A stretch of 64,000 nt of DNA from Candidatus Levybacteria bacterium RIFCSPHIGHO2_01_FULL_40_16 (GCA_001783805.1 MFNS01000001.1:64649-128648), one strand, 5' to 3'. Counted from the first letter of the stretch, positions 22,984-57,038 are shown. A program made the numbers and translations. Notes: generated from the letters alone by a model not told the origin.

Positions 22984-24515
22984 TGAAAAGAATTAGTTTA
23001 TTTTTCTTATTCTTAATACTTCTCCTTTCTTTTCTTTTGGGGGCTAGGATGGTTTTGTCTGGGGACTTTTTCTATCTTTACGATCAAGCCAGAGATTATT
23101 TGCTTGTGCAAAATATTGTTGATACGCGCGATCTTGTTTTAATTGGATCTCACAGTGGTTTGAGCGGTTTTTTCCATGGTCCTCTTTGGCTATATATACT
23201 TACGCCCGTCTATATTCTAGGCAGCGGTAATCCTTTTTCTTTTACATATGCATATGTCGGATTACAGCTTACGACAGTTCTGCTTGCATATTTGATTGGC
23301 TCAAAACTGTATGGAAATAAAGGAGGCCTTTTAATATCATTGTTAATTGCATTGTCACCGGCAACTTGGAGCACCGTTCAGAATACAATAGGAGTAAATG
23401 TTGTTTCACTTGTTTTTCTTGGCTTATTTTATTTTCTTATTAAGTTTTTAAGGGGTAACAAAAATTCTTTTATTTTTGCAGCATTTTTTGCAGGCCTTTC
23501 TCTTCAATTCGAAACTGCCCTCCCATTAATTTTAATTCCAGTTATGGTAATTATTTTTCTTTGGAATAAAATTGCAATTAAAAATTTGAGAGTAATCCTC
23601 TTATCTTTTATCTCTTATTTCTTATCTCTTGGCACATTTATCTTATTCGATCTTCGCCATAAATTCTTGATGACAAATGCATTAATAGGCGTTGTTAAGG
23701 GGGGCATAAAAGAAAAAGGATACCTAGAGTTTGAAGACAGGATTATCGCGCACGTTAATAGCTTGCTAGCTGTTTATGAAAGTATTTTATTTAATCAGAA
23801 TATTTGGTTGATAATATTGATGGTTATAATATTTATTATTGCCTTAATTTTAATTCATAGAAATAACGATATTAAGTACAGAAAAGAATTTGGATTTTTA
23901 TTATTATTTCCTGCTTTAACGTACGGGTTTTTCATGTTATATTCCTATCCTGTATGGCCCGAATATGTGTTTGGGTTACTTATTCCGGTTGCTTTTGCTT
24001 TTTATTTGGCACTTATAACCGTTTGGAAAAATTCTTTTGGAAAAATTTTGGTAATTATATTTTTTGTTATTACATCTGTTAATGTTTTAGGATTTTTACA
24101 GAATCAATATCTGATGAAGTATCAGCCGGTCGAATCAGCCGGTTCATATATAAATCAATTGGCGGTTGTCGATTGGATATTTATAGATGCGGAAAAAGGA
24201 AAGTTTGGGTATTTTGTTTATACGCCGGAAACTTTTACTCATGGAATGGATTATCTAATCTCCTGGAAAGCAAAAAGCTATCCAGACAAGATTCCCACTA
24301 AGAACAAAGAGCTAATAACTTACCTAATCTTGTATCCGCACATAGAAAATGATGAAGGAGCTTATGACTTTTGGAAGAAAAATACCTTAAGAACCAATAG
24401 TCAAATACTTTTGACAAAAACCTTTATCGGCGGAATCACTGTTGAAAAGCTACTTATCAACAAAAGTGAACCGGAAGTTGATCCAAATTATTATCAAGGC
24501 TTGTTGTTTAGATAG
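22983..24515 (+). CDS. PMT_2/ArnT-like GT-C glycosyltransferase candidate
   Basis: FFYLYDQARDY loop-1 motif shared with the gene at 28086. Multi-TM. The ATG at 22983 overlaps the upstream stop (TAATG). Confidence 0.4.
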   Translation: MKRISLFFLFLILLLSFLLGARMVLSGDFFYLYDQARDYLLVQNIVDTRDLVLIGSHSGLSGFFHGPLWLYILTPVYILGSGNPFSFTYAYVGLQLTTVLLAYLIGSKLYGNKGGLLISLLIALSPATWSTVQNTIGVNVVSLVFLGLFYFLIKFLRGNKNSFIFAAFFAGLSLQFETALPLILIPVMVIIFLWNKIAIKNLRVILLSFISYFLSLGTFILFDLRHKFLMTNALIGVVKGGIKEKGYLEFEDRIIAHVNSLLAVYESILFNQNIWLIILMVIIFIIALILIHRNNDIKYRKEFGFLLLFPALTYGFFMLYSYPVWPEYVFGLLIPVAFAFYLALITVWKNSFGKILVIIFFVITSVNVLGFLQNQYLMKYQPVESAGSYINQLAVVDWIFIDAEKGKFGYFVYTPETFTHGMDYLISWKAKSYPDKIPTKNKELITYLILYPHIENDEGAYDFWKKNTLRTNSQILLTKTFIGGITVEKLLINKSEPEVDPNYYQGLLFR

Positions 24516-32310: not shown

Positions 32311-32844
32311 ATGAAGATTGGGATAGACATATCGCAAATTGCCTACGAGGGAACAGGGGTGGCAAACTTTCTTAGTAATTTAGTCTCGAATTTATTAAAA
32401 TTTGATAAAAAAAATGAATATATTCTATTTTACTCTTCTTTAAGAAGAAATTTTCAATTTTCAATTTTCAATTTTCAAGCAAATCGCAATTTTCAAGTCA
32501 AAAAATTCAAATTTCCACCCTTAATTCTGGATTTACTTTGGAATAGGCTGCATGTTTTGCCGATTGAATGGCTGATTGGAGACGTGGATGTTTTTGTTAC
32601 TTCTGATTGGACAGAACCGCCGACTATTAAGGCAAAAAAAGCAACTATTCTGTACGATCTGATTATTTATAAATATCCGAATGAGACAGATAAAAAAATT
32701 GTTGAAGTGCAAAAACGCAAACTAAAATGGGTTAAAAAAGAGTCGGAAATGATATTTTGCATTTCCGAGTCGGCGAAAAAAGATGCGGAGGAAATCTTGG
32801 GGATAGAAAATAAGCGATTAAAGGTTATTTATCCCGGAATTTGA
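32311..32844 (+). pseudogene. GT4 glycosyltransferase, N-terminal domain only (truncated duplicate)
   Basis: 177 aa ending at the YPGI interdomain motif with no C-terminal EX7E domain. The next gene starts 2 nt later with its own N-domain. Contains a TTTTCAA x4 heptamer array. Confidence 0.4.
32451..32496 (+). repeat. heptamer array TTTTCAA x4 (+1) inside GT4 N-domain gene
   Basis: Four perfect copies at 32451–32478 and a fifth at 32490–32496. Read in frame it encodes NFQFSIFNFQ. Confidence 0.8.
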
Positions 32845-32845: not shown

Positions 32846-33988
32846 ATGACAATAGGAATTAATGGATATGAGGCGGTAATTCCCAGATTTGGTTATGATC
32901 CAAAAACCGGCTTGCCGCGAAGGGTTGGGAGCGGAGAGTATTGTTTTCAGCTTTTATTAAACTTAAATAAAATTGATAAACAGAATAGCTACATAATTTA
33001 CCTTCCGGAAAACCCAACATCGGATTTACCCAAAGAATCCTCAAGCTGGCATTACAAGATTATTAAACCGAGAAAAATGTGGACTTTGTTCGGATTATCT
33101 TTGGAATTTCTATTTAGACGTTCGAAACCCGACGTTTTCCTTTCCCCGACGCACTATTTGCCAATTATCGCGCCAAACCGGTCGGCAATCTCCATTTTGG
33201 ACGTGTCATATCTAAAATTTCCGGAGCTTTTTCAAAAATCTGATCTCAATCAACTGACGAAATGGACTAAATATTCCGCCCAAAAGGCCTCAAAGATTTT
33301 TACTATTAGCCAGGCTAGCAAAGATGATATAATTGAAAAATACGGGATTATGGCAAACAAAGTTGTGGTAACATATCCCGGCGTAAAACTCAAAACTCAA
33401 ATGTCAAAACTCAAAACTGAAGCTCAAAACTCAAATCTGCTTAAGGAAAAGTATGGGATTGAAGGGAAGTATATTTTGTTTGTGGGGACGCTACAGCCCC
33501 GTAAGAATATCGTCCGCTTAATAGAGGCTTTTTCTAAGCTAAACAAGCCAAATCTAGATTTGATTGTTGTGGGCAAGAAAGGCTGGAAATTTGAGGAAAT
33601 CCTTGCAGCGCCTAAAAAGTTCGGAATAGAAAATAAAGTTAAGTTTCTGGGTTCCGTTTCGGATGAAGATCTGCCAGCTTTTTATAAGAATGCAATTTGT
33701 TTTGTTTTGCCAAGTCTGTATGAGGGCTTCGGACTGCCGGTTTTGGAAGCAATGAAGTATGGATGTCCGGTTGTAACCAGCAATATCTCCTCTCTTCCCG
33801 AGGCGGGAGGGGACGCGGCTTTGTACATAGATCCGCTTAATGTTGCAGATATAAAGAAGAATCTGGAATTAATAATTAACAATCAGGAATTACGCAAAGA
33901 TTTGATAAGAAAAGGCTACGAGCAGGTCAAAAAATTTAGCTGGGAAAAAACCGCAAAAGAAACATTAAGGGTGCTGGAGGGCATTTAA
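32846..33988 (+). CDS. GT4-family glycosyltransferase
   Basis: N-domain plus C-domain with EGFGLPVLEAM (EX7E). Confidence 0.65.
   Translation: MTIGINGYEAVIPRFGYDPKTGLPRRVGSGEYCFQLLLNLNKIDKQNSYIIYLPENPTSDLPKESSSWHYKIIKPRKMWTLFGLSLEFLFRRSKPDVFLSPTHYLPIIAPNRSAISILDVSYLKFPELFQKSDLNQLTKWTKYSAQKASKIFTISQASKDDIIEKYGIMANKVVVTYPGVKLKTQMSKLKTEAQNSNLLKEKYGIEGKYILFVGTLQPRKNIVRLIEAFSKLNKPNLDLIVVGKKGWKFEEILAAPKKFGIENKVKFLGSVSDEDLPAFYKNAICFVLPSLYEGFGLPVLEAMKYGCPVVTSNISSLPEAGGDAALYIDPLNVADIKKNLELIINNQELRKDLIRKGYEQVKKFSWEKTAKETLRVLEGI
33389..33436 (+). repeat. degenerate heptamer array CTCAAAA/CTCAAAT x~7 in GT4 interdomain linker
   Basis: Units are ctcaaaa ctcaaat gtcaaaa ctcaaaa ctgaag ctcaaaa ctcaaat. 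Encodes KLKTQMSKLKTEAQNSN. Confidence 0.75.
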
Positions 33989-33989
33989 G

Positions 33990-34544
33990 ATGATTAATAA
34001 AATTTTTAGGAGAATAGGGACGATATTATTAGAGTTTGTTGTTTTTAAATTGCACTACGTTGGATATGTCCCGAGCCATCATTATCGGAGGTTTTTTTAC
34101 CGGCTTTTTGGTATGAAGATAGGCCGCGGATCAACCATGCATATGGGAGCCCGTTTTTATAATCCGTATAACATTACAATAGGAGAGGATTCGATTATTG
34201 GCGAAGGTGCAGTTTTGGACGGAAGAGATAAGCTCGCAATTGGCAATCACGTGAGTATTGCAACAGATGTAATGATCTATAACGCGGAGCATGATATCAA
34301 AGATCCAAATTTTAAGGCAATTTCCGCACCGGTTGTGATACAGGATTACGTATTTATCGGTCCGCGGGCGATTATTCTTCCGGGAGTAACAATCAAAAAA
34401 GGTGCGGTTGTCGGAGCCGGCGCAGTAGTCACAAAAGATGTTGAAGAAAACGTAATTGTCGGAGGCGTACCTGCGAAGCAAATTGGGGAAAGAGGAGTAA
34501 AAGATTTAAATTACCGACTTGGCCGCGCCGCATGGTTTAGATAG
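33990..34544 (+). CDS. hexapeptide-repeat (LbH) sugar O-acetyltransferase
   Basis: IGEGAVLDG...IGNHVSIA...GVTIKKGAVVGAGAVV left-handed beta-helix repeats. WcaF/WbbJ-like. Confidence 0.6.
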   Translation: MINKIFRRIGTILLEFVVFKLHYVGYVPSHHYRRFFYRLFGMKIGRGSTMHMGARFYNPYNITIGEDSIIGEGAVLDGRDKLAIGNHVSIATDVMIYNAEHDIKDPNFKAISAPVVIQDYVFIGPRAIILPGVTIKKGAVVGAGAVVTKDVEENVIVGGVPAKQIGERGVKDLNYRLGRAAWFR

Positions 34545-34550
34545 TAACTA

Positions 34551-34578
34551 ATTGTTAAATTGCTATATTGTTAAATTG
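34551..34578 (+). promoter_or_regulatory. 12-nt direct repeat (ATTGTTAAATTG x2) with embedded extended -10 (TGcTATATT) upstream of the GT2 gene
   Basis: Copies at 34551–34562 and 34567–34578. Possible operator/promoter. Confidence 0.3.
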
Positions 34579-34583
34579 TTACG

Positions 34584-35474
34584 ATGGAACTTTCTATTAT
34601 TGTTCTTTCCTATAATACGAGGAATTTAACGCTTGCATGCCTCGAATCGATTGCCTCTCAATATAAGAAGGAGTTGGAAGAAAAAAAGCTGGAAATAATT
34701 GTTGTAGATAACAATTCAACTGACGACTCGGTAGCAAGTATTAAGTATTGCGTATCCCACCTTCGCCAAGGCTTCGGCGGGCAGGCAAGTATTAGGCTCA
34801 TTGAGAGTAAGGAGAATGTGGGGTTTGGCAGAGGATGCAATGTCGGAGCAAAAGAGTCGTCGGGAAAATATCTTCTATTTCTCAATTCGGACACACAAGT
34901 TTTAGACGAGGGTTTTTTATCAATGGTTGGTTTTATGGATAAGAGTAAAAATGTTGCGATTTTGGGAGGAAAACTTGAAAACAATGACGGATCAACTCAA
35001 CGGTCTTGCGGAAAATTCTATAATCTCTTTAATCTTTTGCTTATACTGTTAGGTTTTGAACGATTAGGTTTTTTGAGATCAAGCCCGAGTAAAATTCAAA
35101 AAGTAGATTGGGTTAGCGGTGCCTGCATGATGGTAAGACATGATGTTTTTGAAAAATTAACCGGATTTGATGAGAAACTTTTTATGTATGTAGAGGATAT
35201 GGAGATATGTTTTAGAGCGAAAAAGCTCGGTTTTCTGACTTATTTCTATCCCGATCTTAAGCTTATGCATAAGTCTTTGGGAAGCAGTAACCGCACATTT
35301 GCTATAATTAATATCTATAAGGGCATTTTGCATTTTTACGCAAAGCATAAATCCTATCCGGAATACCTAACTGCCAAAATATTATTAATTGCAAAAGCTG
35401 AAATATTAATTTTGGTCGGATTCTTAACATTTAATCCGGAGTTGAGAAATAGATATAGAAAAGCAATTTCTTGA
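34584..35474 (+). CDS. GT2-family glycosyltransferase
   Basis: LSIIVLSYNTRNLT...VVDNNSTDDS. Confidence 0.6.
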   Translation: MELSIIVLSYNTRNLTLACLESIASQYKKELEEKKLEIIVVDNNSTDDSVASIKYCVSHLRQGFGGQASIRLIESKENVGFGRGCNVGAKESSGKYLLFLNSDTQVLDEGFLSMVGFMDKSKNVAILGGKLENNDGSTQRSCGKFYNLFNLLLILLGFERLGFLRSSPSKIQKVDWVSGACMMVRHDVFEKLTGFDEKLFMYVEDMEICFRAKKLGFLTYFYPDLKLMHKSLGSSNRTFAIINIYKGILHFYAKHKSYPEYLTAKILLIAKAEILILVGFLTFNPELRNRYRKAIS

Positions 35475-35478
35475 AATT

Positions 35479-38400
35479 ATGAAGATTTTAAAATGGATTG
35501 TTCACAATATATTATTCGTTTTTACTTTGTTTTTGTTGCTATTTATTCCTCTTTATCCAAAAATTCCTCTTTTGGATATACAGCATACGTGGGTATATGT
35601 CCGGGTCGAGGATTTTGTTGTTGTGCTGGCTATTGCCGCCTGGATTATTTTACTTTTGCTCAAGAGAGTTAGCCTAAAGACTCCATTGACGCTGCCGATA
35701 CTTTTATTTTGGGTTGTGGGTGGTTTAGCTACTTTACATGGAGTATTGTTTTTTTTCCCAACCTTGTCCAATGTTTTTTCAAATGTTGCCTTATTAAGTT
35801 TTCTAAGGGGAATAGAATACATGTTTCTGTTTTTTGTCGCTTATGCGGGTATTAAATCTGAAAAAAATATCTATCCAGTTGCGATTATTTTACCTATCAC
35901 ATTACTCTTGATTGTGGGGTATGGATTTGGTCAAAAATATCTAGGGTTTCCGGCCTTTTTGACGATGAATGAGGAAGCTGCTAAAGGGATTCCAATTCAG
36001 CTTTCCTCATTATCACGCATTCCCTCTACCTTTGCCGGACATTACGATTTGGCCGGATATTTAGTCTTGACAATCCCTATTGTTGCAAGTATGTTTTTTG
36101 GATTTAAAAATTGGCTTATAAAGATTTTTCTGTTTATCACCGGATTTTTGGGTGTGATTATTCTTTTTTTGACGGTATCCCGCATTTCATTTTTTGCCCT
36201 TTTATTATCACTACTTATGCTATTGATTTTTCAAAGAAAAAAATGGGTCATGGTAGCGCTTTTTATAATCATGATCGCTTTTTTTGGCTTTTTCCCAACA
36301 CTGCTGCAGCGTTTTAGCAGTATGGTTTCGGAAGTTGACGTATTGGTTAATGCTCAAACGGGTTCGTCAATCGGTCAAGCCAGAATTGTTCCGGCGGACT
36401 ATTTTAAGGATAAAGTTGTTCTCACGCAGGCATTTCCAAACGAGGATTTAAATCCTAATCTAGCCAGTTCCTCTGCTTTGATATATCCGTTTGAGAAAAT
36501 ACCCCCTCAAGCGGTTTTAGTATTTGAACCAAATGTTTCAAATGGGGAGAATTTACCGCAGGGAACAAGTTATATAAACCTTCCGCTGTCTCCGGTGACG
36601 GGCAAGGCACGTGAGTATTTTTTTGAAAAATCAACTAACCGGGCAGGAATAATTTCAACGGAAATACGCGTCTACCCCGGAGATTATGTTATAAAAAGGG
36701 CAAAAGCGTATGACATTTCTTTTACCACGAGATTTCAGGGTGAATGGCCCAATACTCTTACGGCTTTTAAAAGAAATATTTTCTTAGGCAGCGGTTACGG
36801 GTCGGTTAGTCTGGCAGTAGACAATAATTATTTGCGCATTTTGGGAGAAACTGGACTCCTTGGATTTATTTCTTTCTTCTCAATCTTTATAATTGCAGGA
36901 ATTTATATTGGAAAATTTTTACCAAAACTAAGATCACCTTTAGCCAAGAGTTTTATTCTAGGTTTTATAGCCGGCTCACTTGGGTTGGCAGTAAATGCGG
37001 TACTAATTGACGTTTTTGTTGCTTCGAAGATTGCTTTTATCTATTGGCTTTTGCTGGGAATAGCCTTGGGAATTTTAACCTCACATAAGGAAGAAATTAT
37101 CGATCTTTATGGGGAGATAAAAAAAATAGTCACCTCTTCCTACGCGATTATTATTTATCTTTTTATTACGATTTTTATAATGTTCTCTTCGATTTTAAAC
37201 TTCTATTTTGTAGGCGATGATTTTACTTGGTTTCGATGGGCTGCTAATTGCAGCAACTGTCTTTCTTTCTCGACAATAATTAACTACTTCACGAACGCAA
37301 GTGGGTTTTTCTATCGGCCGGGAACAAAAATCTTTTTTGATTTAATGTATTCAACATTTTGGTTTAATCAAGCCGTGTATCATCTGGCCTCAATTCTTCT
37401 TCATTTTACCGTCGCAACGTTGATATTTTTGCTCGCAAAAAAAATCTTGAAAAATCTTGCTATGTCTGCGGCTGTTGCATTTTTATTCCTAATTTTAAGC
37501 GGATATTTAGAGATTGTTTTATGGATTGCTGCAGTTGGTCATCTTTTCAATGCGGTCTTTGTTCTCTTAAGCTTGTTGATGTTTGTTCTTTGGAAGGAAA
37601 AGAAAAAAATGATCTACCTTATCGCTTCTTCCATTTTTACCTTTTTAAGTCTAATGTTTTACGAAATAGGGGTTGTTGCTCCATTCCTGATAATCCTTTA
37701 CAATTCGATTTTCGGGAGTCAGACGGGTAAAGATGCTATTTCCAAAAAAGCAGCGTATTTTATTGCATTTTTACCTCTTTTGCCTTATTCTTTATTACGT
37801 TTTTTTGCGCAAAGCCATTGGTTTAGCGGTGATTACAGCTACAATTTGATTAAGTTACCTTTCAACGTTGTAGGCAATCTTCTTGGATATTTTTCTCTTA
37901 CACTTTTTGGGCCCGCTTCTTTAAGCTTCTATGAGAATCTTAGAGTCTTATCAAGGAATAATGTGCTAATTACGCTACTGGGGTTATTAATTTTACTATT
38001 CTTGTTAGCTAAAACTTATCGGTCTGCGATTGTAAAGTTGGATACTCAAGAAAAGAAAATTTTGGCTTTCGGCTCATTGTTCTTTGCAATTTCCTTACTG
38101 CCGTTTTTGGGATTGGGGAATATAACTTCAAGATATAGCTACTTGTCTTCCTTTGGGCTCGTAATTCTTTTTGTATTTTTTCTTAAAAAAACTTATTATT
38201 ATTTGCTGAATAATAATAAATATATCGCTTCAACAATCATTATTTTGATAGTTATCATCTTTTCTTCTTTCCAGCTTTTTCAATTCCAAAGAATCCAGAC
38301 TGATTGGAAGGAAGCAGGGGAAAAAACAAAAAGCTTTCTCACGTCACTGGATTGGATATATGCGCATTATCCTGAGCAATACACCAAACAACTTTATTTC

Positions 38401-38643
38401 GTAAATGTGCCAATCCGTAACGGAGAAGCATGGGTGTTTCCTGTCGGACTAAATGATGCGGCCTGGCTTGTTTTTAGAGGAAAAGATGTTAAGATTTCTC
38501 AAGCTCAATCATCAGAACAGGCATTTGCTAATCTTGGGAGCGGTTATGGTAAAGTATTTGAATTTGATAGTAACGCAAAACTTATAGAGATGGTCAGAAA
38601 CCGTCAGGGAAAGATTGTTCCGGTCAGCCAGCAATATAAGTAA
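35479..38643 (+). CDS. 1054-aa fusion: O-antigen-ligase/PglL-like (Wzy_C) module + second GT-C-like polytopic module
   Basis: The N-half carries the Wzy_C signature (...FLGSGYGSVSLAVDNNYLRILGETGLLGF...). The C-half (about aa 540–1054) is another multi-TM region with a VGDDF acidic loop-1 motif and a C-terminal soluble domain. Confidence 0.45.
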   Translation: MKILKWIVHNILFVFTLFLLLFIPLYPKIPLLDIQHTWVYVRVEDFVVVLAIAAWIILLLLKRVSLKTPLTLPILLFWVVGGLATLHGVLFFFPTLSNVFSNVALLSFLRGIEYMFLFFVAYAGIKSEKNIYPVAIILPITLLLIVGYGFGQKYLGFPAFLTMNEEAAKGIPIQLSSLSRIPSTFAGHYDLAGYLVLTIPIVASMFFGFKNWLIKIFLFITGFLGVIILFLTVSRISFFALLLSLLMLLIFQRKKWVMVALFIIMIAFFGFFPTLLQRFSSMVSEVDVLVNAQTGSSIGQARIVPADYFKDKVVLTQAFPNEDLNPNLASSSALIYPFEKIPPQAVLVFEPNVSNGENLPQGTSYINLPLSPVTGKAREYFFEKSTNRAGIISTEIRVYPGDYVIKRAKAYDISFTTRFQGEWPNTLTAFKRNIFLGSGYGSVSLAVDNNYLRILGETGLLGFISFFSIFIIAGIYIGKFLPKLRSPLAKSFILGFIAGSLGLAVNAVLIDVFVASKIAFIYWLLLGIALGILTSHKEEIIDLYGEIKKIVTSSYAIIIYLFITIFIMFSSILNFYFVGDDFTWFRWAANCSNCLSFSTIINYFTNASGFFYRPGTKIFFDLMYSTFWFNQAVYHLASILLHFTVATLIFLLAKKILKNLAMSAAVAFLFLILSGYLEIVLWIAAVGHLFNAVFVLLSLLMFVLWKEKKKMIYLIASSIFTFLSLMFYEIGVVAPFLIILYNSIFGSQTGKDAISKKAAYFIAFLPLLPYSLLRFFAQSHWFSGDYSYNLIKLPFNVVGNLLGYFSLTLFGPASLSFYENLRVLSRNNVLITLLGLLILLFLLAKTYRSAIVKLDTQEKKILAFGSLFFAISLLPFLGLGNITSRYSYLSSFGLVILFVFFLKKTYYYLLNNNKYIASTIIILIVIIFSSFQLFQFQRIQTDWKEAGEKTKSFLTSLDWIYAHYPEQYTKQLYFVNVPIRNGEAWVFPVGLNDAAWLVFRGKDVKISQAQSSEQAFANLGSGYGKVFEFDSNAKLIEMVRNRQGKIVPVSQQYK

Positions 38644-38645
38644 AT

Positions 38646-40118
38646 ATGAAAAAAAATGAAATTTTATTTTTGCTATTTATTCTTGTAGGAGCATTTGCGG
38701 TTAGACTCTATCATTTTAGTTGGCCGATTGCCGATTGGCATTCCTGGCGTCAGACAGATACATCGGCAGTTTCCCGCAATTTCGTTCAAAATGGATTTGA
38801 TGTTTTACATCCTAAATTTGAAGATTTATCATCTTCAGTTTCTTTAATTGATAATCCACAGGGATATCGTTTCGTTGAATTTCCTTTTTATAACATTTTG
38901 CAGGCCGGACTGTTTGAAACATTCCAAAAGTTTACAATAGAAGAATGGGGCAGGTTGGTCACAATTTCTTTTTCACTTATTTCCATAATTTTTCTTTACC
39001 TTTTGGTAAAAAAATACACTTCAGTTAGGGCTGGTCTATTTGCGGCGTTTTTCTACGCGTTTATTCCGTACAACATTTATTACGGCAGAGCTATTCTTCC
39101 AGATTCGCTTATGCTTGCGTCATTTTTGGCGGCCATATATTTCTTCAGCCAATATCTGGATAACGAATATAAGAAAAACTTATATTACTTCTTAGGTATT
39201 ATTTCTTTGGCCATAGCATTTCTTATTAAACCCTATGTTGCTTTTTATATTCTACCTTTCGCGTACCTAATATATTCAAAATACGGCATTAAAGGATTTA
39301 TGAGATTAGATATGTGGTTATTCTTTTTGTTATCAATACTTCCATTTGGTTTGTGGCGAATGTGGATGAGTCAATATCCGGCAGGAATACCGAGAAATAA
39401 CTGGTTATGGAACGGAACGGGAATAAGATTTAGGCCAGCATTTTTCCAATGGATTTTTGCCGAAAGAATCGCAAAATTAATTCTCGGTTATTGGGGGTTG
39501 ATATTTGTCATATTGGGATTAGTAATAAAACCTCTCAAAAAAGAGGGCTGGCTTTTTTTGACATTTATAATATCAAGCCTAATGTACCTTTTTACTTTTG
39601 CAACCGGTAATGTGCAGCATGATTATTATCAGATGCTCATAATTCCAACACTTGCGATTTTTTTCGCTAAAGGATTTGATGGAATTTTGCGTCTTGGTAA
39701 AGAAGGAGTGCTTAATTACAAAATAGGTTTGATATCAAGTATAACTGCAATTATCTTTATGCTTGCTTTTGGATGGTTTGCAATTCGTGATTATTACAGT
39801 ATTCAGCACCCTAATATTATCGCAGCAGGTCGGGCAGTTGACCAATTGGTTCCCGAAGACGCAAAAGTTATTGCTCCTTATGGTGGAGATACAACTTTTT
39901 TATATTTTACCAATCGGCAAGGATGGCCGGTTTTTGACAGGTCTTTTAAGAAATTTAAGGAAGCGGGGGCATCGCATATTGCCTTTGCCGATCCAACCTC
40001 TGAAGACCTTAATTTGGAAGAGCTATTTAAACCCGTAGTCATAACTTCTACATACGCGATATTTGACATGACAAAACCTACTCCCGAAGGCTTGATGGCT
40101 CAACAGAAAAAAGATTAA
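38646..40118 (+). CDS. GT-C-like membrane glycosyltransferase (PMT_2/ArnT-like)
   Basis: 490 aa. WHSWRQTDTSAVSRNF loop-1 region. Multi-TM. Confidence 0.4.
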   Translation: MKKNEILFLLFILVGAFAVRLYHFSWPIADWHSWRQTDTSAVSRNFVQNGFDVLHPKFEDLSSSVSLIDNPQGYRFVEFPFYNILQAGLFETFQKFTIEEWGRLVTISFSLISIIFLYLLVKKYTSVRAGLFAAFFYAFIPYNIYYGRAILPDSLMLASFLAAIYFFSQYLDNEYKKNLYYFLGIISLAIAFLIKPYVAFYILPFAYLIYSKYGIKGFMRLDMWLFFLLSILPFGLWRMWMSQYPAGIPRNNWLWNGTGIRFRPAFFQWIFAERIAKLILGYWGLIFVILGLVIKPLKKEGWLFLTFIISSLMYLFTFATGNVQHDYYQMLIIPTLAIFFAKGFDGILRLGKEGVLNYKIGLISSITAIIFMLAFGWFAIRDYYSIQHPNIIAAGRAVDQLVPEDAKVIAPYGGDTTFLYFTNRQGWPVFDRSFKKFKEAGASHIAFADPTSEDLNLEELFKPVVITSTYAIFDMTKPTPEGLMAQQKKD

Positions 40119-40119
40119 G

Positions 40120-41328
40120 ATGAACATTCTTTTGGTTTCATCATATCTGCCTTATCCTCTTTTTTCCGGAGGACACATCCGCTTGTATAATTTGATAAAA
40201 GAATTAAGTCATAAACATAAAATAACTTTGGTTTGTGAAAAAAGAGATTATCAAGGTGATGCCGAAATCTCGGAGCTTAAGAAATTCTGCAAAAAAGTTA
40301 TTTCAGTTCCCCGTAAAAAGCAATGGTCTTTGAAAAATATTACAAAAACCGGATTGTCAGCTTTACCCTTTTTAATAATAGGTCACACTAGTAGCGAAAT
40401 GCGGAAAGAAATTCAAAGAGAACTCAATGAAAATCAATTTGATTTAATTCACGCGGAGACTTCTTATGTAATGCAGAATATTCCTGAAACCAAAATTCCT
40501 ATTATTTTGGCAGAGCACAATGTGGAATATTTGGTCTACAAGCGTTTTGCAGATAAAGCACCATTGTTGCTGAGGCCGCTTTTGTATATGGATGTTTTAA
40601 AGCTTAAGCGTTGGGAAGAAGCAGTATGGAAAAAGGCCACGAAATTGATAGCGGTTTCAAAAATTGAAAAAGAAATTATGAACAAAGTTAGAAAAGATGT
40701 TGTTGTTGTTTCAAATGGAGTGGACATTGAAAAATTTACAATTAACGATTTACAATTAACAAGAGATGGAAGAGAAAAAAGAATTTTGTTTATTGGGGAA
40801 TTTAAATGGGTGCAAAATAGAGACGCAATCGAATGGATAATTAAAGAAATTTGGCCAAAGCTTATGGCCGAATTTATCCCGCCTATAACAGGCGGTGGGA
40901 TTAAATTATGGGTAGTTGGGAGGAATATTCCTGATTCAATTAGAGAATTGACAAGCGATAAAAATATTATATTTGATGACAAAGCACCAAAAGAAACGGA
41001 AGAGATATTCAGAAAATCAAATCTTCTCCTGGCTCCAATTCAGGTTGGCGGAGGAACGAGTTTCAAAATTTTGGAAGCAATGGCGAGCGGCGTTCCAGTT
41101 GTCACAACAGATCTAGGTAATGCAATAGGAGCAAAAGAAGATTTAGAAATAGTTATTGCAAATGAGGCGCACGATTTTATTGTAAAGATTAAAGAACTAT
41201 TCGAGAATAAGAAATTTTATGAAACAATTTCTCAAAATGCCAGAAAGTTAATTGAAGAAAAATTTAACTGGCAAAAAATTGCAGGAGATCTAGATTCCGT
41301 TTATGAGCTAGTCGTGCCTTATGCTTGA
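40120..41328 (+). CDS. GT4-family glycosyltransferase
   Basis: C-domain GGTSFKILEAMASGVPVV (EX7E). Confidence 0.65.
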   Translation: MNILLVSSYLPYPLFSGGHIRLYNLIKELSHKHKITLVCEKRDYQGDAEISELKKFCKKVISVPRKKQWSLKNITKTGLSALPFLIIGHTSSEMRKEIQRELNENQFDLIHAETSYVMQNIPETKIPIILAEHNVEYLVYKRFADKAPLLLRPLLYMDVLKLKRWEEAVWKKATKLIAVSKIEKEIMNKVRKDVVVVSNGVDIEKFTINDLQLTRDGREKRILFIGEFKWVQNRDAIEWIIKEIWPKLMAEFIPPITGGGIKLWVVGRNIPDSIRELTSDKNIIFDDKAPKETEEIFRKSNLLLAPIQVGGGTSFKILEAMASGVPVVTTDLGNAIGAKEDLEIVIANEAHDFIVKIKELFENKKFYETISQNARKLIEEKFNWQKIAGDLDSVYELVVPYA

Positions 41329-42199
41329 CCTTTCTATTATTATTGTCAGTTACAACGCAAAGGAGTTCTTGAGGAAATGCATTGCGTCAATCGTGAAGAA
41401 CATAAAGAACGTTTCATACGAAGTGATTGTTGTTGATAATAATTCAACAGACAGTTCTTCCGAAATGGTCAAAAAAGAGTTTCCCCAAATAAAGTTAATT
41501 GCGAATAAGAAAAATTTTGGGTTTTCAAAGGCGAATAATCAGGGAATTAAAATCTCAGAGGAAAGCAAATATATTTTATTTTTAAATCCGGATACGATTG
41601 TTAACGAACAGTCAGTTGAGGGAATGGTTAAATTTATGGATAGTCATTCAGATGCGGGGGCATCCACTTGCAAACTCGTAATGCCGAATGGAAGAATCGA
41701 TGATGCATCCCATCGCGGTTTTCCAACTCCTTGGAATTCTTTCTGCCATTTCTCAGGAATGTCCCGAATATTTCCAAAATCACAGATTTTCGCAGGATAT
41801 AACTTGGGATGGATGAACTTTGAGAAAACCCACGAAATAGATGTGCTGGCTGGAGCATTCATGTTGGTTAGAAGAGTTGCGGGTAAGGAAGCGAAATGGT
41901 GGGATGAAGATTATTTTTTCTACGGGGAAGATATAGATTTTTGTTATCAGCTAAAAGCAAAAGGCTGGAAAATTTATTATGTCCCGACCTTTTCTATAAT
42001 TCATTACAAAGGCGTGAGCGGCGGGATAAAATCTGTTTCTAAAGAAATCACCACAGCGAGTAAGGAAACAAAAGAAATGGTAACCAAATGGCGTTTTAAG
42101 GCAATGAGAATTTTTTACAATAAACATTACAGGCAAAAATATCCTTGGATTATTAATTTATTAGTAAATGTTGGAATTTCAATCAGAGAAAAAATATGA
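41321..42199 (+). CDS. GT2-family glycosyltransferase
   Basis: LSIIIVSYNAKEFL...VVDNNSTDSS. Confidence 0.6.
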   Translation: MLDLSIIIVSYNAKEFLRKCIASIVKNIKNVSYEVIVVDNNSTDSSSEMVKKEFPQIKLIANKKNFGFSKANNQGIKISEESKYILFLNPDTIVNEQSVEGMVKFMDSHSDAGASTCKLVMPNGRIDDASHRGFPTPWNSFCHFSGMSRIFPKSQIFAGYNLGWMNFEKTHEIDVLAGAFMLVRRVAGKEAKWWDEDYFFYGEDIDFCYQLKAKGWKIYYVPTFSIIHYKGVSGGIKSVSKEITTASKETKEMVTKWRFKAMRIFYNKHYRQKYPWIINLLVNVGISIREKI

Positions 42200-43338
42200 A
42201 AATAGGAATTGATACGAGGCTTTGGGGTGAAACTGGAGTTGGGAGATATATTCGCAATTTAGTGTCTGAACTTTCTAAAATAGACTTTAAGAATAGTTAT
42301 GTCTTGTTCGCCTTAAACAAAAACGAAAAAAACATTAAATCCGCAATTCGTAATTCTCAATTCGTAATTCGATTAACTGATATTAAGTGGCATACGCTTG
42401 AAGAACAATTAAAATTTCCTGCAATTTTGAATAAAGAAAATCTCGATCTAATACATTTTCCTTATTTTTCCGTTCCCGCTCTTTATAACAAACCATTTGT
42501 TTTTACGATTCACGATCTTATTATCGATCATTTTCCAACCGGACAGGCATCTGCTTTGCCATTTCCCATCTATAACCTTAAAAGGTTAGCATATAATCTT
42601 GTACTTAGTTACGCAGCAAAAAAAGCAAAAAAAATCATTACTGTTTCAAATGCGACGAAAGATGAAATTATAGATCATTTAAAAGTTAATCCCGAAAAAG
42701 TTGCAGTGACCTATGAGGGGGTGGATGATAGAATATCAAATATCAAATATCAAAAATCAAAAATTGATAGTGAATACTTTCTTTGTGTTGGGAATGCGTA
42801 TCCGCATAAAAATCTTGAGAGATTATTGGAAGCGTTTAAAATATTGGATAACGACACGAAACTTGTTTTGGTTGGAAAGGAAGATTATTTTTACAAAAGA
42901 TTAAGGAGTAAGGTGGCGGGAATGAGACTTTCCGACAAAACAATTCTCTTACAAAATGTAGCTGATGAAGAATTGTCAAGTTTGTACCAAAATGCAAAAG
43001 CTTTAATCTTGCCGTCTTTAATGGAAGGGTTTGGTCTGCCGGCTTTGGAGGCGATGGCGAATAAATGTTTGGTTTTGGCATCAGATATACCTTCATTGAG
43101 AGAAATATGTGGTAATGCCGCTTTGTATTTTAACCCATTAAGCATTGATGAATTGACAAAAAAGCTCAATATGGTTACCTCCCATACTACAGGGTATGGA
43201 AGGTTAGAAGAAATAAGAAAAAGAGGAATTGAGAGAGTCAAGCTTTTTTCCTGGCGCAAAATGGCAAGGAAGACATTGAAAATATATGAAAGTAGTTCTT
43301 CGGCAAGTCGAAGATACCCAGAGGGGCACTCAGAATAA
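42196..43338 (+). CDS. GT4-family glycosyltransferase
   Basis: EGFGLPALEAMANKCLVL. Contains two heptamer arrays (AATTCGT x4 and AATATCA x4–5). Confidence 0.65.
   Translation: MKIGIDTRLWGETGVGRYIRNLVSELSKIDFKNSYVLFALNKNEKNIKSAIRNSQFVIRLTDIKWHTLEEQLKFPAILNKENLDLIHFPYFSVPALYNKPFVFTIHDLIIDHFPTGQASALPFPIYNLKRLAYNLVLSYAAKKAKKIITVSNATKDEIIDHLKVNPEKVAVTYEGVDDRISNIKYQKSKIDSEYFLCVGNAYPHKNLERLLEAFKILDNDTKLVLVGKEDYFYKRLRSKVAGMRLSDKTILLQNVADEELSSLYQNAKALILPSLMEGFGLPALEAMANKCLVLASDIPSLREICGNAALYFNPLSIDELTKKLNMVTSHTTGYGRLEEIRKRGIERVKLFSWRKMARKTLKIYESSSSASRRYPEGHSE
42345..42372 (+). repeat. heptamer array AATTCGT-like x4 in GT4 N-domain
   Basis: Units are aattcgt aattctc aattcgt aattcga. Confidence 0.8.
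42732..42766 (+). repeat. heptamer array AATATCA x3 + AAAATCA + AAAATTG in GT4 interdomain linker
   Basis: Encodes ISNIKYQKSKI. Confidence 0.75.
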
Positions 43339-43365
43339 ACTTACTTATTATTGCAAGTTCATCCT

Positions 43366-44535
43366 ATGAAAGTGGCATTAGTGTACGACCGATTGAATAA
43401 ATGGGGAGGGGCAGAAAGAGTAATGCTTGCTTTGCATAAGCTATTTCCTCTAGCTCCGCTTTACAGCTCAGTTTACGATAAAAAGAAAGCTCCTTGGGCC
43501 CTTCGTTTTAACTCAGGGCAAGCAAAAATTAAAACTTCTTTCCTTCAAAACTTTCCATTCGCCATGCGCCATGAGCTATATGCTGGCCTGATGCCTTTGG
43601 CGTTTGAGAGCTTTAATTTTGACGAGTTTGATTTAGTAATTTCCATAACTTCGGAAGCGGCAAAAGGAATTATTACTAAGCCCCAAACAAAACATATTTG
43701 TTATTGTTTAACGCCGACCCGTTATCTTTGGAGTGGATACAAAGACTATTTTAATAATCCGGTTCTTCGTTTTCTTTCATTTCCGGTTGTTTGGTATTTG
43801 AAGTTTTGGGATAAAATTGCAGCGCAAAGGCCGGACGCGTACATTGCGATTTCAAAAGAGGTTCAGATGAGGATTAAGAAGTATTATGGCAGAGAATCAA
43901 CCGTGGTGTACCCGCCAATCGAAATCTCAAATCTCAAATCTCAAATCTCAAATAAATCTCAAAATGCCAAATACAAAATACAAAATATCCCTTATTTCTT
44001 AATTGTTTCCCGTCTAGTTCCGTATAAGAAAATAGATCTTGCAATAAGAACTTTTAATAAATTAAAACTTCCCTTAAAAATAATTGGAACAGGCTCACAG
44101 ATGCAGGAATTAAAATCAATGGCGGAGCCGACAATTGAGCTTCTGGGTAACTTGACGGATAAAGAGCTGGTAAGGTATTATAGTGAGTGTTGCGCTTTGG
44201 TTTTTCCCGGTCCTGAAGATTTCGGTTTAACAATCTTAGAGGCGCAGGTTTTTGGCAAGCCGGTTATCGCTTTTAGAGGTGGAGGGGCTCTGGAAACAAT
44301 CATTGAAAAAAAGACAGGCGTTTTTTTTGAAGAACAAACAATCGAGAGCCTAACCAAAACAATAAAGCAATTTAACAAAATGAAATTTGATCCAAGAGAT
44401 TGCATCGAGCAAGCAAACAAATTTAATTTTAAAGTGTTTGAGGAGCGATTTATGCAAGAGATCCTTCGGCTGATGCCTCGTGCCGCCGGCATAGCCTTTG
44501 GCGACGCACGGCAGGATGACATTAATAAATTATGA
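43366..44535 (+). CDS. GT4-family glycosyltransferase
   Basis: MKVALVYDRL... and the C-domain EDFGLTILEAQVFGKPVI. A long AAATCTC/AAATACA heptamer array lies in the interdomain linker. The start was set at ATG 43366; the track starts at TTG 43351. Confidence 0.6.
   Translation: MKVALVYDRLNKWGGAERVMLALHKLFPLAPLYSSVYDKKKAPWALRFNSGQAKIKTSFLQNFPFAMRHELYAGLMPLAFESFNFDEFDLVISITSEAAKGIITKPQTKHICYCLTPTRYLWSGYKDYFNNPVLRFLSFPVVWYLKFWDKIAAQRPDAYIAISKEVQMRIKKYYGRESTVVYPPIEISNLKSQISNKSQNAKYKIQNIPYFLIVSRLVPYKKIDLAIRTFNKLKLPLKIIGTGSQMQELKSMAEPTIELLGNLTDKELVRYYSECCALVFPGPEDFGLTILEAQVFGKPVIAFRGGGALETIIEKKTGVFFEEQTIESLTKTIKQFNKMKFDPRDCIEQANKFNFKVFEERFMQEILRLMPRAAGIAFGDARQDDINKL
43922..43989 (+). repeat. heptamer array AAATCTC x4 followed by AAATACA x2–3 in GT4 interdomain linker
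   Basis: 68 nt of AAAT-N-N-C-type units. Encodes EISNLKSQISNKSQNAKYKIQNI. Confidence 0.8.
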
Positions 44536-52214: not shown

Positions 52215-52256
52215 TAACTTCTAACTTCTAACTGCTAATGACTAACTTTTAACAAC
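52215..52256. repeat. intergenic heptamer array TAACTTC-like x6 (stops in all three frames)
   Basis: The six units are taacttc taacttc taactgc taatgac taacttt taacaac. The array begins 4 nt after the stop of the upstream gene. Confidence 0.7.
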
Positions 52257-52307
52257 TACATCTTGCGTAATTCTACTTTGTAGAACACTATTGTGGTCAT
52301 TTCCCTA

Positions 52308-52929: not shown

Positions 52930-53798
52930 GTGACTTTCATGAGGGTGTACTTTTAAAAGAAACAATAGCCGGATTAAAAGTTGAGAAAAACAAAAAGTAC
53001 ATTGACGCAACATTGGGAGGGGGAGGACACACGGGTGAGATTTTGAAGCATGGGGGGATCGTTTTGGGCTTGGATGTTGATGAGGATGCGCTTGCGTACG
53101 TTGATAAAAATTTCAAATTTCAAATTTCAAATTTCAAATTGACGCTGGCGAGAGGAAATTTTAGAGATATAGATAGAATTGCACTTTTAAATAATTTTGC
53201 TCCGCCGGCTGGCGGAGTGGCCGGAATAATTTTTGACCTTGGTGTTTCCGGCTATCAGATAGATAATCCCGCGCGCGGATTCAGTTTCCAGTATGAGGGC
53301 CCGCTGGATATGAGAATGGACCAGGATTTGGGAGTAAGGGCCCTAGATTTAATCAAGATTCTGACGAAAGGAGAGCTCTATGAAATATTTACTAGATTTG
53401 GTGAAGAGAACCATGCTTGGGAGATTGCTAACGCTATTGTTAGGGCCCGTAGCGTAAAAGCAATTGCAACAACCAGGGATCTGGCGAAAATAATTTTTCC
53501 AATAGCCGGGCAAAGTAAAAGAGTCTTTCAAGCACTTAGAATCGCAGTGAACGACGAGCTAGATGCAATTACGCAAGCCCTACCGAAAGCTTTAAAGCTT
53601 TTAGAGAAAAATGGAAGATTATGCGTAATTTCGTTTCATTCTCTGGAAGACAGAATCATCAAAAGAAAATTTTTGGAATTTGAAGAGAAAAATTTGGGAA
53701 AAATTATTACGGAAAAACCAATTGTTACGACAAACGAAGAAATCGAAAAGAATAAAAGAGCAAGAAGTGCAAAATTAAGAATATTTGAAAAAACTTAA
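52926..53798 (+). CDS. rsmH: 16S rRNA (cytosine1402-N4)-methyltransferase RsmH
   Basis: HEGVLLKETI...DATLGGGGHT...DLGVSGYQID...FHSLEDR. Contains an AAATTTC x4 heptamer array in a variable region. Confidence 0.8.
   Translation: MSDFHEGVLLKETIAGLKVEKNKKYIDATLGGGGHTGEILKHGGIVLGLDVDEDALAYVDKNFKFQISNFKLTLARGNFRDIDRIALLNNFAPPAGGVAGIIFDLGVSGYQIDNPARGFSFQYEGPLDMRMDQDLGVRALDLIKILTKGELYEIFTRFGEENHAWEIANAIVRARSVKAIATTRDLAKIIFPIAGQSKRVFQALRIAVNDELDAITQALPKALKLLEKNGRLCVISFHSLEDRIIKRKFLEFEEKNLGKIITEKPIVTTNEEIEKNKRARSAKLRIFEKT
53108..53140 (+). repeat. heptamer array AAATTTC x4.7 inside rsmH
   Basis: 33 nt, in frame (NFKFQISNFKL). Replaces a non-conserved surface segment. Confidence 0.8.
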
Positions 53799-55793: not shown

Positions 55794-57029
55794 ATGTGGC
55801 AGAGAACAAAGAATCTTTATCATCTCGGTATTGCGATCATTTCCAATGCCTGGTTTAAATTTCCTTCAAGAAAGTTGACCATAATTGGCGTAACCGGAAC
55901 GGATGGAAAAACGACGACAACCAGCCTTATCTATCACGTTTTACATACTGCCGGTTTGAATACTTCAATGGTGAGCTCAATCGGGGCAGTAATCAACGGA
56001 AAAAACTTTGATGTAGGCTTTCACGTCACCACCCCCTCCTCTTTTGCCCTGCAGAGATTCTTACAAAAAGCTTCCAAGGAGAGCCCTTCCTCTGGCGCCA
56101 CCCCTCGAAATTTCTTAGTTCTGGAAACTACATCCCACGCTTTGGATCAGTACCGGGTTTTTGGGATTAAATTCGCTGTCGGAGTATTAACGAATGTTAC
56201 CCATGAACACTTGGACTATCACAAAACCTATGAAAATTACGTTAAAACAAAGGCAAAGTTGCTCAAGATGTCCAGAATTGCAGTTGTGAATAAAGATGAC
56301 CAGTCATATCGCTTGATAAATTCGAAATTCGAAATTCGAAATTCGAAATTAGTAACCTATGGGTTGGGAAAAGATTCGGATATAAATCCGAAAACATTTC
56401 CTTTTAAAACAAATTTAATCGGTGATTACAACAAATATAATATTTTGGCCGCAATAAGTGCTTGCAGAGCGCTTGGAGTAAAGGATGAGGCAATAAGGAA
56501 GGGAATTGAAAGTTTTGTGGCGCCACTTGGCAGGGGAGACATTGTTTATCCAACGGCTGCCTTAGGGCAAGCTGATTTTACGGTGATGATTGATTTTGCT
56601 CACACTCCGAATGCAATTGATCAAGTTTTAAAATCGGTTAGGCCGATTGTTGAAGGCAAAATTATTCATGTTTTCGGTTCTGCCGGAGCAAGAGATGTGA
56701 CAAAAAGACCGTTAATGGGAGAAATGTCCTCCAAATACGCGGACATAATTATTCTGACAGCCGAAGATCCAAGAAAAGAAAATGTTGAAAAGATTATGAA
56801 CGGGATAGCCGGAGGAATTCAGAATTCGGAATTAAGGATTAAGAATGGAACATTGTTTAAAATTCCAGACCGGAAAGAGGCAATTAAAACCGGAATTAAA
56901 CTGGCTAAGAAAGGTGATTTTGTCATTATTACCGGAAAATCGCACGAAAGATCTATGAATTACGGACACGGAGAGGTCGCATGGGACGAATATGGAGTTG
57001 TTAGAAGAGTATTAAGGATTAATGATTAA
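55794..57029 (+). CDS. murE: UDP-MurNAc-L-Ala-D-Glu:diamino-acid ligase MurE (lacks canonical N-terminal domain)
   Basis: IIGVTGTDGKTTTTS P-loop, VVNKDD, EDPR and ITGKSHE. Only 411 aa. Contains an AAATTCG x4 array. Confidence 0.7.
   Translation: MWQRTKNLYHLGIAIISNAWFKFPSRKLTIIGVTGTDGKTTTTSLIYHVLHTAGLNTSMVSSIGAVINGKNFDVGFHVTTPSSFALQRFLQKASKESPSSGATPRNFLVLETTSHALDQYRVFGIKFAVGVLTNVTHEHLDYHKTYENYVKTKAKLLKMSRIAVVNKDDQSYRLINSKFEIRNSKLVTYGLGKDSDINPKTFPFKTNLIGDYNKYNILAAISACRALGVKDEAIRKGIESFVAPLGRGDIVYPTAALGQADFTVMIDFAHTPNAIDQVLKSVRPIVEGKIIHVFGSAGARDVTKRPLMGEMSSKYADIIILTAEDPRKENVEKIMNGIAGGIQNSELRIKNGTLFKIPDRKEAIKTGIKLAKKGDFVIITGKSHERSMNYGHGEVAWDEYGVVRRVLRIND
56318..56350 (+). repeat. heptamer array AAATTCG x4.7 inside murE
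   Basis: 33 nt, in frame (NSKFEIRNSKL). Lies between the NxDD motif and the ...TYG strand. Confidence 0.8.
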
Positions 57030-57038
57030 GGATTAATG
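57011..57038 (+). repeat. perfect 2 x 14-nt (4 x ATTAA[G/T]G heptamer) tandem repeat spanning the murE stop and murC RBS/start
   Basis: attaaggattaatg attaaggattaatg. Copy 1 encodes the murE C-terminus (LRIND) and copy 2 supplies the murE TAA stop and the murC ATG. Confidence 0.8.

Follow-up and report, generated by a model that had tools for sequence, protein, structure and literature searches.

The described system closest to the one reported here is the neuO gene of E. coli K1, a phage-borne gene with a coding repeat of the heptamer AAGACTC ('poly-psi'): its 3-53 units yield full-length protein only at unit numbers divisible by three, the length of the repeat tunes activity, and the repeat is a demonstrated phase-variation switch (PMC13001214). 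We describe here tandem heptamer arrays in a 64,000-nucleotide (nt) stretch of DNA (hereafter the window) from Candidatus Levybacteria bacterium RIFCSPHIGHO2_01_FULL_40_16, a member of the uncultured Levybacteria (candidate phyla radiation), in particular those of its GT4 glycosyltransferase genes. As in neuO, they consist of a 7-nt tandem unit in coding sequence, the copy number varies and the protein can change in steps of 7 amino acids (aa). The neuO unit is A-rich and near ones found here (the AAAACTC array at position 33385 encodes KLKTQ.S), and the same frame rule holds in murE, where loss of three units is in frame (variant P0153) and loss of one gives an immediate TAG. neuO differs in having one 5'-terminal array in one gene, and a proven switch, whereas the Levybacteria arrays are internal, comprise 4-7 units and occur in dozens of genes per genome, housekeeping genes included.

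Haemophilus, Neisseria and Campylobacter are known to have contingency loci made of simple-sequence repeats (SSR) in their glycosyltransferase genes. PMC8437040 and PMC11868660 describe hypermutable repeats within glycosyltransferase genes of host-adapted bacteria, with frameshifts arising by slippage. Their units are of 1-5 nt, they usually lie near the 5' end and they concern surface-structure genes only, whereas the Levybacteria units are of 7 nt, lie in tolerant loops in mid-gene and are also found in essential genes. Rickettsia palindromic elements are mobile, palindromic, 100-150 bp long, belong to one sequence family and are inserted in frame inside conserved proteins. The arrays resemble them in bringing repeat-derived in-frame sequence to positions that tolerate extra residues, and differ from them in having no conserved sequence, ends or palindromes. 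According to the account of it in PMC4692102, a survey of 2007 found heptamers over-represented among bacterial SSRs, and polymerase slippage has been proposed as the cause; the GGGNATC repeats of Xanthomonas and Nostoc and the short tandemly repeated repetitive (STRR) heptamers of Calothrix and Nostoc are examples (PMC4692102). Like the arrays described here, these show an excess specific to period 7, other long periods being normal, and vary in length and sequence among close relatives; unlike them, the Xanthomonas and STRR repeats are G-rich, of many copies and mainly intergenic, whereas Levybacteria arrays have A/T-rich units, measure ~33 nt and lie for ~85% in frame within open reading frames (ORFs). 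The TAACTGA direct repeats of Beggiatoaceae, Cyanobacteria and Bacteroidetes, located just upstream of start codons and proposed to act in translational regulation (PMC4679880), are also scattered heptamers, of 2-6 copies, and an intergenic TAACTTC array of the window (52215) resembles them; they have, however, one unit and precede starts, whereas Levybacteria have many units, mostly coding. In the library searched, no paper was found to report such repeats from Levybacteria or other bacteria of the candidate phyla radiation, and heptamers are not discussed in PMC3315296.

Our preferred explanation, which we consider probable, is that the arrays arise genome-wide by slippage in a heptamer register and are then filtered by selection for reading frame, for stop-free units and for structural tolerance of the encoded peptide. 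The window, searched with Tandem Repeats Finder and by direct reading of the sequence, contains ~15 period-7 arrays, typically of 30-33 nt, with rsmH, murE and murC among the hosts besides the GT4 genes. Perfect arrays of at least 3 copies numbered 5 at period 7 and 0 at each of the other periods from 4 to 15. A mismatch-tolerant score counted 6 period-7 arrays in the window, whereas 20 shuffles that preserved its dinucleotides gave 0.0; besides period 7 only its multiples 14 and 21 were enriched. The same detector was applied to 80 related loci (1.23 Mb from species-representative genomes, centred on orthologs of the GT4 gene at 42196): in strict counts, it returned 88 arrays of period 7, 10 of period 14, 8 of period 8 and 0-1 for all others between 4 and 15, so that period 8 is the sole non-multiple with a small excess. 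Array density is roughly 7-10 per 100 kb. Because period-7 arrays are frequent across the Levybacteria-labelled loci and absent from six Gottesmanbacteria-labelled loci (~116 kb), the habit is a lineage-wide feature of Levybacteria, specific to heptamers and not to GT4 genes. Chance or base composition as the source of the periodicity is ruled out by the period and shuffle tests. So is an assembly artefact: many assemblies made independently, and many species, contain such arrays, which are also shorter than the k-mer given in the contig labels (k141).

The GT4 genes of the window and their arrays are as follows.

32311..32844, + strand: GT4 N-domain-only ORF, 177 aa, ending VIYPGI* at the linker position (PF13439 at residues 16-177)
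32449..32478, + strand: array of AATTTTC, 4.3 copies, 100% matches, encoding NFQFSIFNFQ after YILFYSSLRR (N-domain site 1)
32846..33988, + strand: GT4 glycosyltransferase, 380 aa (PF00534 at 3e-41, and PF13439)
33385..33435/39, + strand: degenerate array of AAAACTC/CTCAAAA, 7.4 copies, 77% matches, encoding KLKTQMSKLKTEAQNSN (interdomain linker)
40120..41328, + strand: fourth full-length GT4 glycosyltransferase, 402 aa (PF13692, PF13439, PF00534)
40733..40762, + strand: period-7/14 array of ATTTACA/ATTAACG, 14-mer copies 100% identical, encoding KFTINDLQLTR (linker)
42196..43338, + strand: GT4 glycosyltransferase, 380 aa, with a modelled GT-B fold (Pfam, AlphaFold)
42338..42371, + strand: period-7/14 array of AATTCGY type, encoding KSAIRNSQFVIR after YVLFALNKNEKNI (N-domain site 1)
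42732..42761/64, + strand: array of AATATCA, 4.3 to ~4.7 copies, 95% matches, encoding RISNIKYQKSKI (interdomain linker)
43366..44535, + strand: GT4 glycosyltransferase, 389 aa from ATG, the ORF opening with TTG at 43351 (PF00534 at 1e-24)
43922..43953, + strand: array of AAATCTC, 4.6 copies, 100% matches, encoding EISNLKSQISN (interdomain linker)
43960..43987, + strand: degenerate array of CAAAATA, 4 copies, 85% matches, adjoining the preceding one

An earlier note on this DNA had described heptamer arrays of different units at one structural position, the linker between N- and C-domains, in the GT4 genes 32846, 42196 and 43366, and a further pair in the N-domains of 32311 and 42196. Both descriptions were accurate. 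Tandem Repeats Finder and the raw sequence place the three linker arrays where the note had put them, and translation shows them to follow VTYPGV, VTYEGVDD and VVYPPI with differing units; the two N-domain arrays are sited after strand beta-2. From the paralog alignment and the Pfam boundaries, the linker arrays all lie between the V.Y.G[VI] and Y[IF]L.VG strands, and they occupy the gap between the N- and C-domain matches wherever both matches exist (for GT4 32846, the array sits between matches at residues 67-182 and 202-359). The note had overlooked a fourth gene, 40120-41328, with an array at the equivalent linker position; it also matches TIGR03087 at 1e-50, below the cut-off of that model. 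PF00534 (Glycos_transf_1) matches all four full-length GT4s (E-values 3e-41, 2e-12, 3e-30 and 1e-24) and PF13439 (Glyco_transf_4) three of them, 43366 having the C-domain match only. The degenerate 43960 array looks like the decayed, older portion of a tract shared with the 43922 array.

The 177-aa ORF 32311, which scores 27 bits with PF13439, just below the cut-off of 28.5, stops after VIYPGI, right where the interdomain linker would start. This truncation is shared by many related loci (designated by L numbers: L004, L005, L011, L017, L019, L022, L024, L045, L046, L054, L067 and others), while in the more distant L055, L062, L077, L078 and L082 the relatives of the ORF continue into a canonical linker and C-domain. 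ORF 32311 may be a conserved split GT-B enzyme and not a pseudogene.

Arrays are not restricted to GT4 genes. Among 71 host ORFs we counted 38 GT4, 9 PMT_2, 7 GT2, 5 RsmH, 1 MurE and 1 hexapeptide transferase, a mix biased toward glycosyltransferases since the comparison loci are centred on a glycosyltransferase cluster. In the window, GT4 genes cover 8% of the DNA and hold 7 of the 15 arrays (P = 8e-5). The relative position of an array within its ORF is mostly 0.1-0.6, i.e. internal. The full-length GT4 hosts have 38 arrays, drawn from a wide range of species and no fewer than four orthogroups. Of these arrays, 36 fall within residues 36-63 or 164-207, that is within 19% of the length (P = 5e-24): 12 follow strand beta-2 (residues 36-63) and 24 are situated between V.Y.G[VI] and Y[IF]L.VG (residues 164-207), the other 2 being at 228-229. 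This site specificity supports one of the two interpretations offered by the note, a recurrent targeting of flexible linkers. An AlphaFold model of one paralog, GT4 42196, built on 40 orthologs (predicted local distance difference test score, pLDDT, 84.8; predicted template-modelling score, pTM, 0.82), shows a GT-B fold, i.e. two Rossmann-like domains and a connector, and Foldseek matches it with MshA, BshA, PimA, PglA and WaaG at template-modelling (TM) scores of 0.67-0.75. Its linker array corresponds to residues 179-190, in a modelled coil (172-193) between strands 169-171 and 194-198; residues 175-186 of this coil are the only internal stretch of the model with a pLDDT <50.

The other interpretation was a single repeat-encoded linker, present in the common ancestor of the GT4 paralogs and of which the present units would be diverged descendants. 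Its appeal lies in the equivalent position of the arrays in four paralogs and in the persistence of array sites in deeply diverged orthologs as units change; concerted, long-lived arrays are conceivable. We hold it to be very improbable all the same. The four paralogs share 22-36% identity, and the arrays at 32449 and 43922 are nevertheless 100% periodic. Many orthologs of each paralog are non-periodic and of baseline length, more distant GT4 relatives have a canonical connector of 'GVD..F.P' type, non-periodic too, and identical kinds of arrays are found in intergenic DNA and in the unrelated families rsmH, murE, murC, GT2 and PMT_2. The units differ, moreover, at each site. In the GT4 42196 family, the linker measures 13-36 aa and is non-periodic in many species, the units found elsewhere being AATATCA, AAATTTC, AAATTGG, AAATTCG followed by AAAATAC, and ACGTATC; arrays are also present in orthologs at the site of the 42338 array, which corresponds to hypervariable columns. 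The GT4 43366 family has a non-periodic baseline linker of 15-18 aa and, depending on the species, AAATCTC, AAATTCG, AAATCCC, AAAAGTC, AACTGGC, AAATTTC or AAATGGC at the linker site. Six species of the GT4 40120 family have arrays of differing units, and the orthologs of the 32449 array have arrays in L005, L019 and L024 and a non-periodic segment of the same 57 nt in L004 and L054. The units of the rsmH orthologs also differ at one site (AAATTTC, AAATCTC, AAAATTC and AATTCAG among them). From this evidence on orthologs and units, simple inheritance from the common ancestor of the paralogs is therefore ruled out; the unit turnover seen at each site supports arrays that are, to judge by these alignments, born recurrently and turned over at tolerant sites.

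Two observations were made on the same orthologs. In L018, the linker array of the GT4 40120 ortholog contains an in-frame stop ('DTK*FEVRSSKFEV'); the gene may be a pseudogene or a phase-off allele, or the stop may be due to a sequencing error. In the alignment of GT4 42196 orthologs (columns ~78-100 and 295-337), many have inserts that are absent from the window: those at a third hypervariable site resemble 'CHPELVSGSQLNRDSDLRQND', and those at site 1 read 'EILKQVQND'. The two have the appearance of a single inverted-repeat DNA element that is translated in frame in one direction or the other.

The anatomy of the arrays was studied on 94 of them, 80 within ORFs, where the A-rich strand is the coding strand, and 14 intergenic. 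Effects of coding strand and replication strand are inseparable in this data set, as the minus strand carries only 4.6% of its coding DNA. The arrays conform to the definition of microsatellites, head-to-tail copies of a short unit in excess of chance, and perfect 14-nt repeats of two diverged units, detected by Tandem Repeats Finder at 40734-40760, 42344-42370 and 57011-57040, are typical higher-order microsatellite behaviour. Array lengths peak sharply at 32-33 nt (31/94; 4.6-4.7 copies), with a median of 32 nt and a standard deviation (SD) of 4.8 for coding arrays, and a range of 21-46 nt (SD 7.4) for intergenic ones. A 21-nt spacing was sought in the histogram of perfect-run lengths, which is confounded by runs from imperfect arrays. 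There are ~55 distinct units, the commonest being AAATTTC (7), AATTTTC (6), AAATCTC (5) and AAAATTC (5), and on the coding strand they are 45% A and 9% G.

A stop filter was directly apparent. Because a heptamer array is read in its three frames in turn, a coding unit must avoid stops in every frame, and 71 of the 80 coding units are stop-free in all three, against 63% expected of random genomic heptamers (P = 2.5e-7). On the opposite strand, 60 of the 80 contain a stop. The nine stop-containing coding units belong to short arrays or escape the stop through a base change in the one copy that would be read in the critical frame. Of the 14 intergenic units, 13 contain a stop on one strand or both. 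The DNA-level periodicity of the arrays, exact at synonymous positions too, and the existence of intergenic arrays speak against protein-level selection for heptad or low-complexity linkers, to which a 7-residue period given by three heptamer units might otherwise have pointed; the linker is also modelled as coil and not as helix. A mobile mini-element, suggested by an in-frame placement in permissive loops that recalls the Rickettsia elements, does not fit the flanks: over the 94 arrays they contain at most 0.16 bit of information per position, with no conserved ends or target motif, and the diversity of units tells against it too. We regard either of these two explanations as extremely improbable.

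The note had further proposed that linker length can change in 7-aa steps. This holds in individual cases: a 7-aa variant of MurE (see below), the L005 linker of GT4 42196, where the window's AATATCA array plus an AAATGGA array make exactly 7 residues more, and the linker of GT4 32846, which is 7 aa longer in the window than in the L051 ortholog with the unit AAAACTC. As a general rule it is not supported: other step sizes occur, and a 7-residue periodicity of linker lengths across species was not significant (P = 0.14 and 0.41), these lengths ranging from 12 to 69 aa. Array-bearing and array-free orthologs are in fact often of equal length. Such is the case for the 57-nt N-domain segment, for rsmH, where units differ with no net length difference, and for the GT4 40120 linkers (18-19 aa with arrays, 16-20 aa without).

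Equal length with and without an array at these three independent sites is what would be expected if a lineage-specific process overwrote ~30-33 nt with copies of a neighbouring heptamer and left the length unchanged, be it by templated patch synthesis or by gene conversion in which the copies pair 7 nt out of register. The tight 32-33 nt mode agrees with it, as do the differing units at fixed position and length in the GT4 40120 family and the filling of the 57-nt slot with another, GC-rich sequence in L004. Against it stand the observed polymorphisms, which are plain unit indels (-7, -14 and -21 nt), and the wide variation of linker length between species; equal lengths could also come about if old arrays decay and the length of the loop is under selection. 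Overwriting of this sort is, to our mind, distinctly improbable, and quite unlikely also in the form of a Levybacteria process that writes ~33-nt heptamer tracts into permissive loops in place and re-homogenises them with new units. Were writing in place real, it would give these episymbiotic bacteria of small genome a continuous, genome-wide supply of loop variants, of 7-aa length variants and of occasional frameshift alleles, affecting envelope enzymes (GT4, GT2, PMT, MurE), and hence a built-in means of diversification or bet-hedging.

The GC-rich sequence mentioned above is an in-frame filler of ~35 nt, of the form CCCAC(C/T)TCGC...GCGGGGCA(A/G)GC. It is present in the window in ORF 34584-35474 (~34755-34795), and also at ~150-185 of L004, ~8195-8235 of L036 and ~10545-10580 of L012. 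It encodes peptides such as HLRQGFGGQAS, PTSLKLRGAS and HFAEALRGKQ and sits in the same hypervariable loops as do heptamer arrays in other cases; the very 57-nt slot where the window has its AATTTTC array is taken up by this filler in L004.

Copy-number change was sought among contigs otherwise identical to the window. It was observed in the murE region, the arrays of which are given below.

56318..56350, + strand: perfect array of AAATTCG, 4.7 copies, population-polymorphic, in murE, encoding INSKFEIRNSKL
56815..56846, + strand: degenerate array of GAATTMR type, in murE, encoding GIQNSELRIKN
57011..57040, + strand: 14-mer ATTAAGG ATTAATG, 2.1 copies, polymorphic, at the murE/murC junction

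At 56318, an allele of -7 nt, giving a frameshift and an immediate TAG stop, is the consensus in L084, L085 and L087; L084 (a 526-kb contig) has 0 mismatches to the window over 4.5 kb apart from the missing heptamer, and contigs L086 and L088 end within this array. Among the proteins that cluster with MurE at 90% identity are a 404-aa variant, P0153, that lacks exactly FEIRNSK, i.e. three units, which implies an in-frame change of -21 nt, and split products of 183 and 221 aa, the DNA of the split form being that of the -7 nt allele. At 57011-57040, L092 (a 276-kb contig) differs from the window by -14 nt and by nothing else over 4.3 kb; its one-copy allele deletes the murE stop, so that murE runs 36 codons into murC in another frame. 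As otherwise identical contigs differ in array length, the arrays change by whole units much faster than by point substitution, and copy-number polymorphism is live at two arrays of the window at least, murE and murE/murC.

The GT4 arrays gave no such variation: no copy-number variant, in frame or out of frame, was present in ~20-25 contigs of the window strain or in the clusters formed at 90% identity around each of the five GT4 ORFs. Over 7.1 kb, three contigs with GT4 42196 match the window at 100% identity. A metagenome scan with the exact flanks of the 43922 tract and a variable gap gave 0 hits; the strain is apparently absent there, so that this result is silent on variation. The short contigs L089 and L090 match the window to the end of a GT4 linker array (33435 and 42764, respectively) and are unrelated to it from there on. 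Such contigs may be chimeras that assembly created by way of similar arrays, rearrangements or recombinants between arrays, and were not used as evidence.

Could the arrays be contingency loci, selected because slippage switches genes or resizes linkers and so varies surface glycans or cell-wall enzymes? A frameshifting murE allele that is the assembled consensus in three samples, a -14 nt allele that alters the murE stop codon, and the neuO precedent of a heptanucleotide repeat kept in frame by threes (PMC13001214) are in keeping with this idea, and so is the enrichment in glycosyltransferases, with due regard to the centring of the loci. On the other hand, the GT4 arrays show no length variant, and rsmH, murE and murC are housekeeping hosts in which switching off should harm. 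Copy number is low (4-5) and many arrays are degenerate, hence less prone to slippage; lastly, the arrays lie in tolerant segments in mid-gene and not near the 5' end, a location predicted by a filter for tolerance and unneeded for switching. We therefore judge contingency function unlikely.

We come back to slippage filtered by selection. A tandem-duplication process acting almost only in a 7-nt register would operate anywhere in the Levybacteria genome, and selection would then determine which arrays persist. Three requirements would apply to coding arrays: the net change in length should keep the frame, either by three units at once (21 nt, 7 aa) or by changes that add up, 7 + 14 nt for instance; the unit should be stop-free in all three frames, which would favour A-rich units such as those of the AAAnnTC, AAATTCG and AAATTGG kinds; and the 10-11 residues encoded should fall in a segment tolerating almost any sequence. 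In the GT-B fold, two segments would be of this kind: the part of the N-domain that follows strand beta-2, and the disordered connector that joins this domain to the C-domain. Because the fold offers these two tolerant segments, GT4 paralogs and orthologs would accumulate arrays independently and with different units. Units would then mutate, the tract decay and partial copies seed fresh arrays in place, and as a consequence orthologous sites would show different units at similar length. Slippage as the generator, the reason for its 7-nt register and the status of the arrays, tolerated and not useful, are what we infer from these patterns.

Several facts sit uneasily with this explanation. Simple slippage predicts net insertions, whereas array-bearing and array-free orthologs are often of equal length, and the 32-33 nt mode is only loosely accounted for by a short seed plus three units; since slippage does not fully explain either, writing in place has to be kept as a rival. 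Going from 1.7 to 4.7 copies needs out-of-frame intermediates or a hypothetical processive event. The preference for units with a run of A followed by a run of T (AAATTTC, AATTTTC and AAAATTC, 18/94) exceeds what the stop filter requires. The lack of copy-number variants in the GT4 arrays counts here as well. Finally, the site-1 array of GT4 42196 (residues 48-59) is modelled with high confidence as the end of a helix, a loop and a strand: in the model, this site is variable in sequence and yet not disordered.

The remaining arrays of the window are in other genes or between genes.

23598..23630, + strand: array of CTCTTAT, 4.7 copies, 84% matches, in ORF 22911-24515, encoding LLSFISYFLSL
52215..52258, + strand: array of TAACTTC, 5.6 copies, stop codon in the unit, intergenic
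53108..53140, + strand: perfect array of AAATTTC, 4.7 copies, in rsmH, encoding KNFKFQISNFKL
58373..58405, + strand: degenerate array of AAATTCA type, at the murC C-terminus, encoding INSELKMQKSKL

No Pfam match was found for ORF 22911-24515. Relative to window positions 53075-53142, a 1.9-kb JGI contig (L091) has a deletion of 68 nt, with a 2-nt microhomology, that takes away the rsmH array and 33 nt upstream of it and puts the gene out of frame. Either the deletion allele is real or the contig is misassembled. The duplicated 14-mer of 57011-57040, ATTAAGGATTAATG, holds the murE stop (TAA), an AGGA motif and the murC ATG. MurE (55794-57029) passes TIGR01085 with 357 bits (cut-off 257). Since the alignment begins only at profile position 72, the protein, as judged from this match, is without the usual N-terminal domain. 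A direct repeat of period 20, CAAAATGGAAAAAAGTGGGT, in 2 copies at 52331-52369, lies upstream of ORF 52489-52929, which itself precedes rsmH; it may correspond to MraZ-box-like operator repeats ahead of a putative mraZ. A period-8 array, AATTGTTA, of 4 copies with 83% matches (34550-34581), lies in the narrow intergenic space between ORFs 33990-34544 and 34584-35474.

Heptamer excess has been reported since 2007 without a mechanism and with little follow-up, mostly for intergenic cases. As the Levybacteria arrays lie inside genes, three layers of selection, for frame, for stop-free units and for structural tolerance, become legible from the sequence, and the contrast between Levybacteria, with many arrays, and Gottesmanbacteria, with none in the sampled loci, provides a comparative handle on the 7-nt register. 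The polymorphic murE arrays show the process to be active today and able, in assembled populations, to put an apparently essential gene out of action. This calls for caution in annotation and in the assessment of genome quality, split genes or pseudogenes at arrays being possibly live alleles. For the enzymes themselves, the arrays mark those positions of conserved proteins that are tolerant of arbitrary sequence. To conclude, proteins of the candidate phyla radiation can, if the explanation preferred here is correct, gain low-complexity loops through slippage at the DNA level and not through adaptive insertion.

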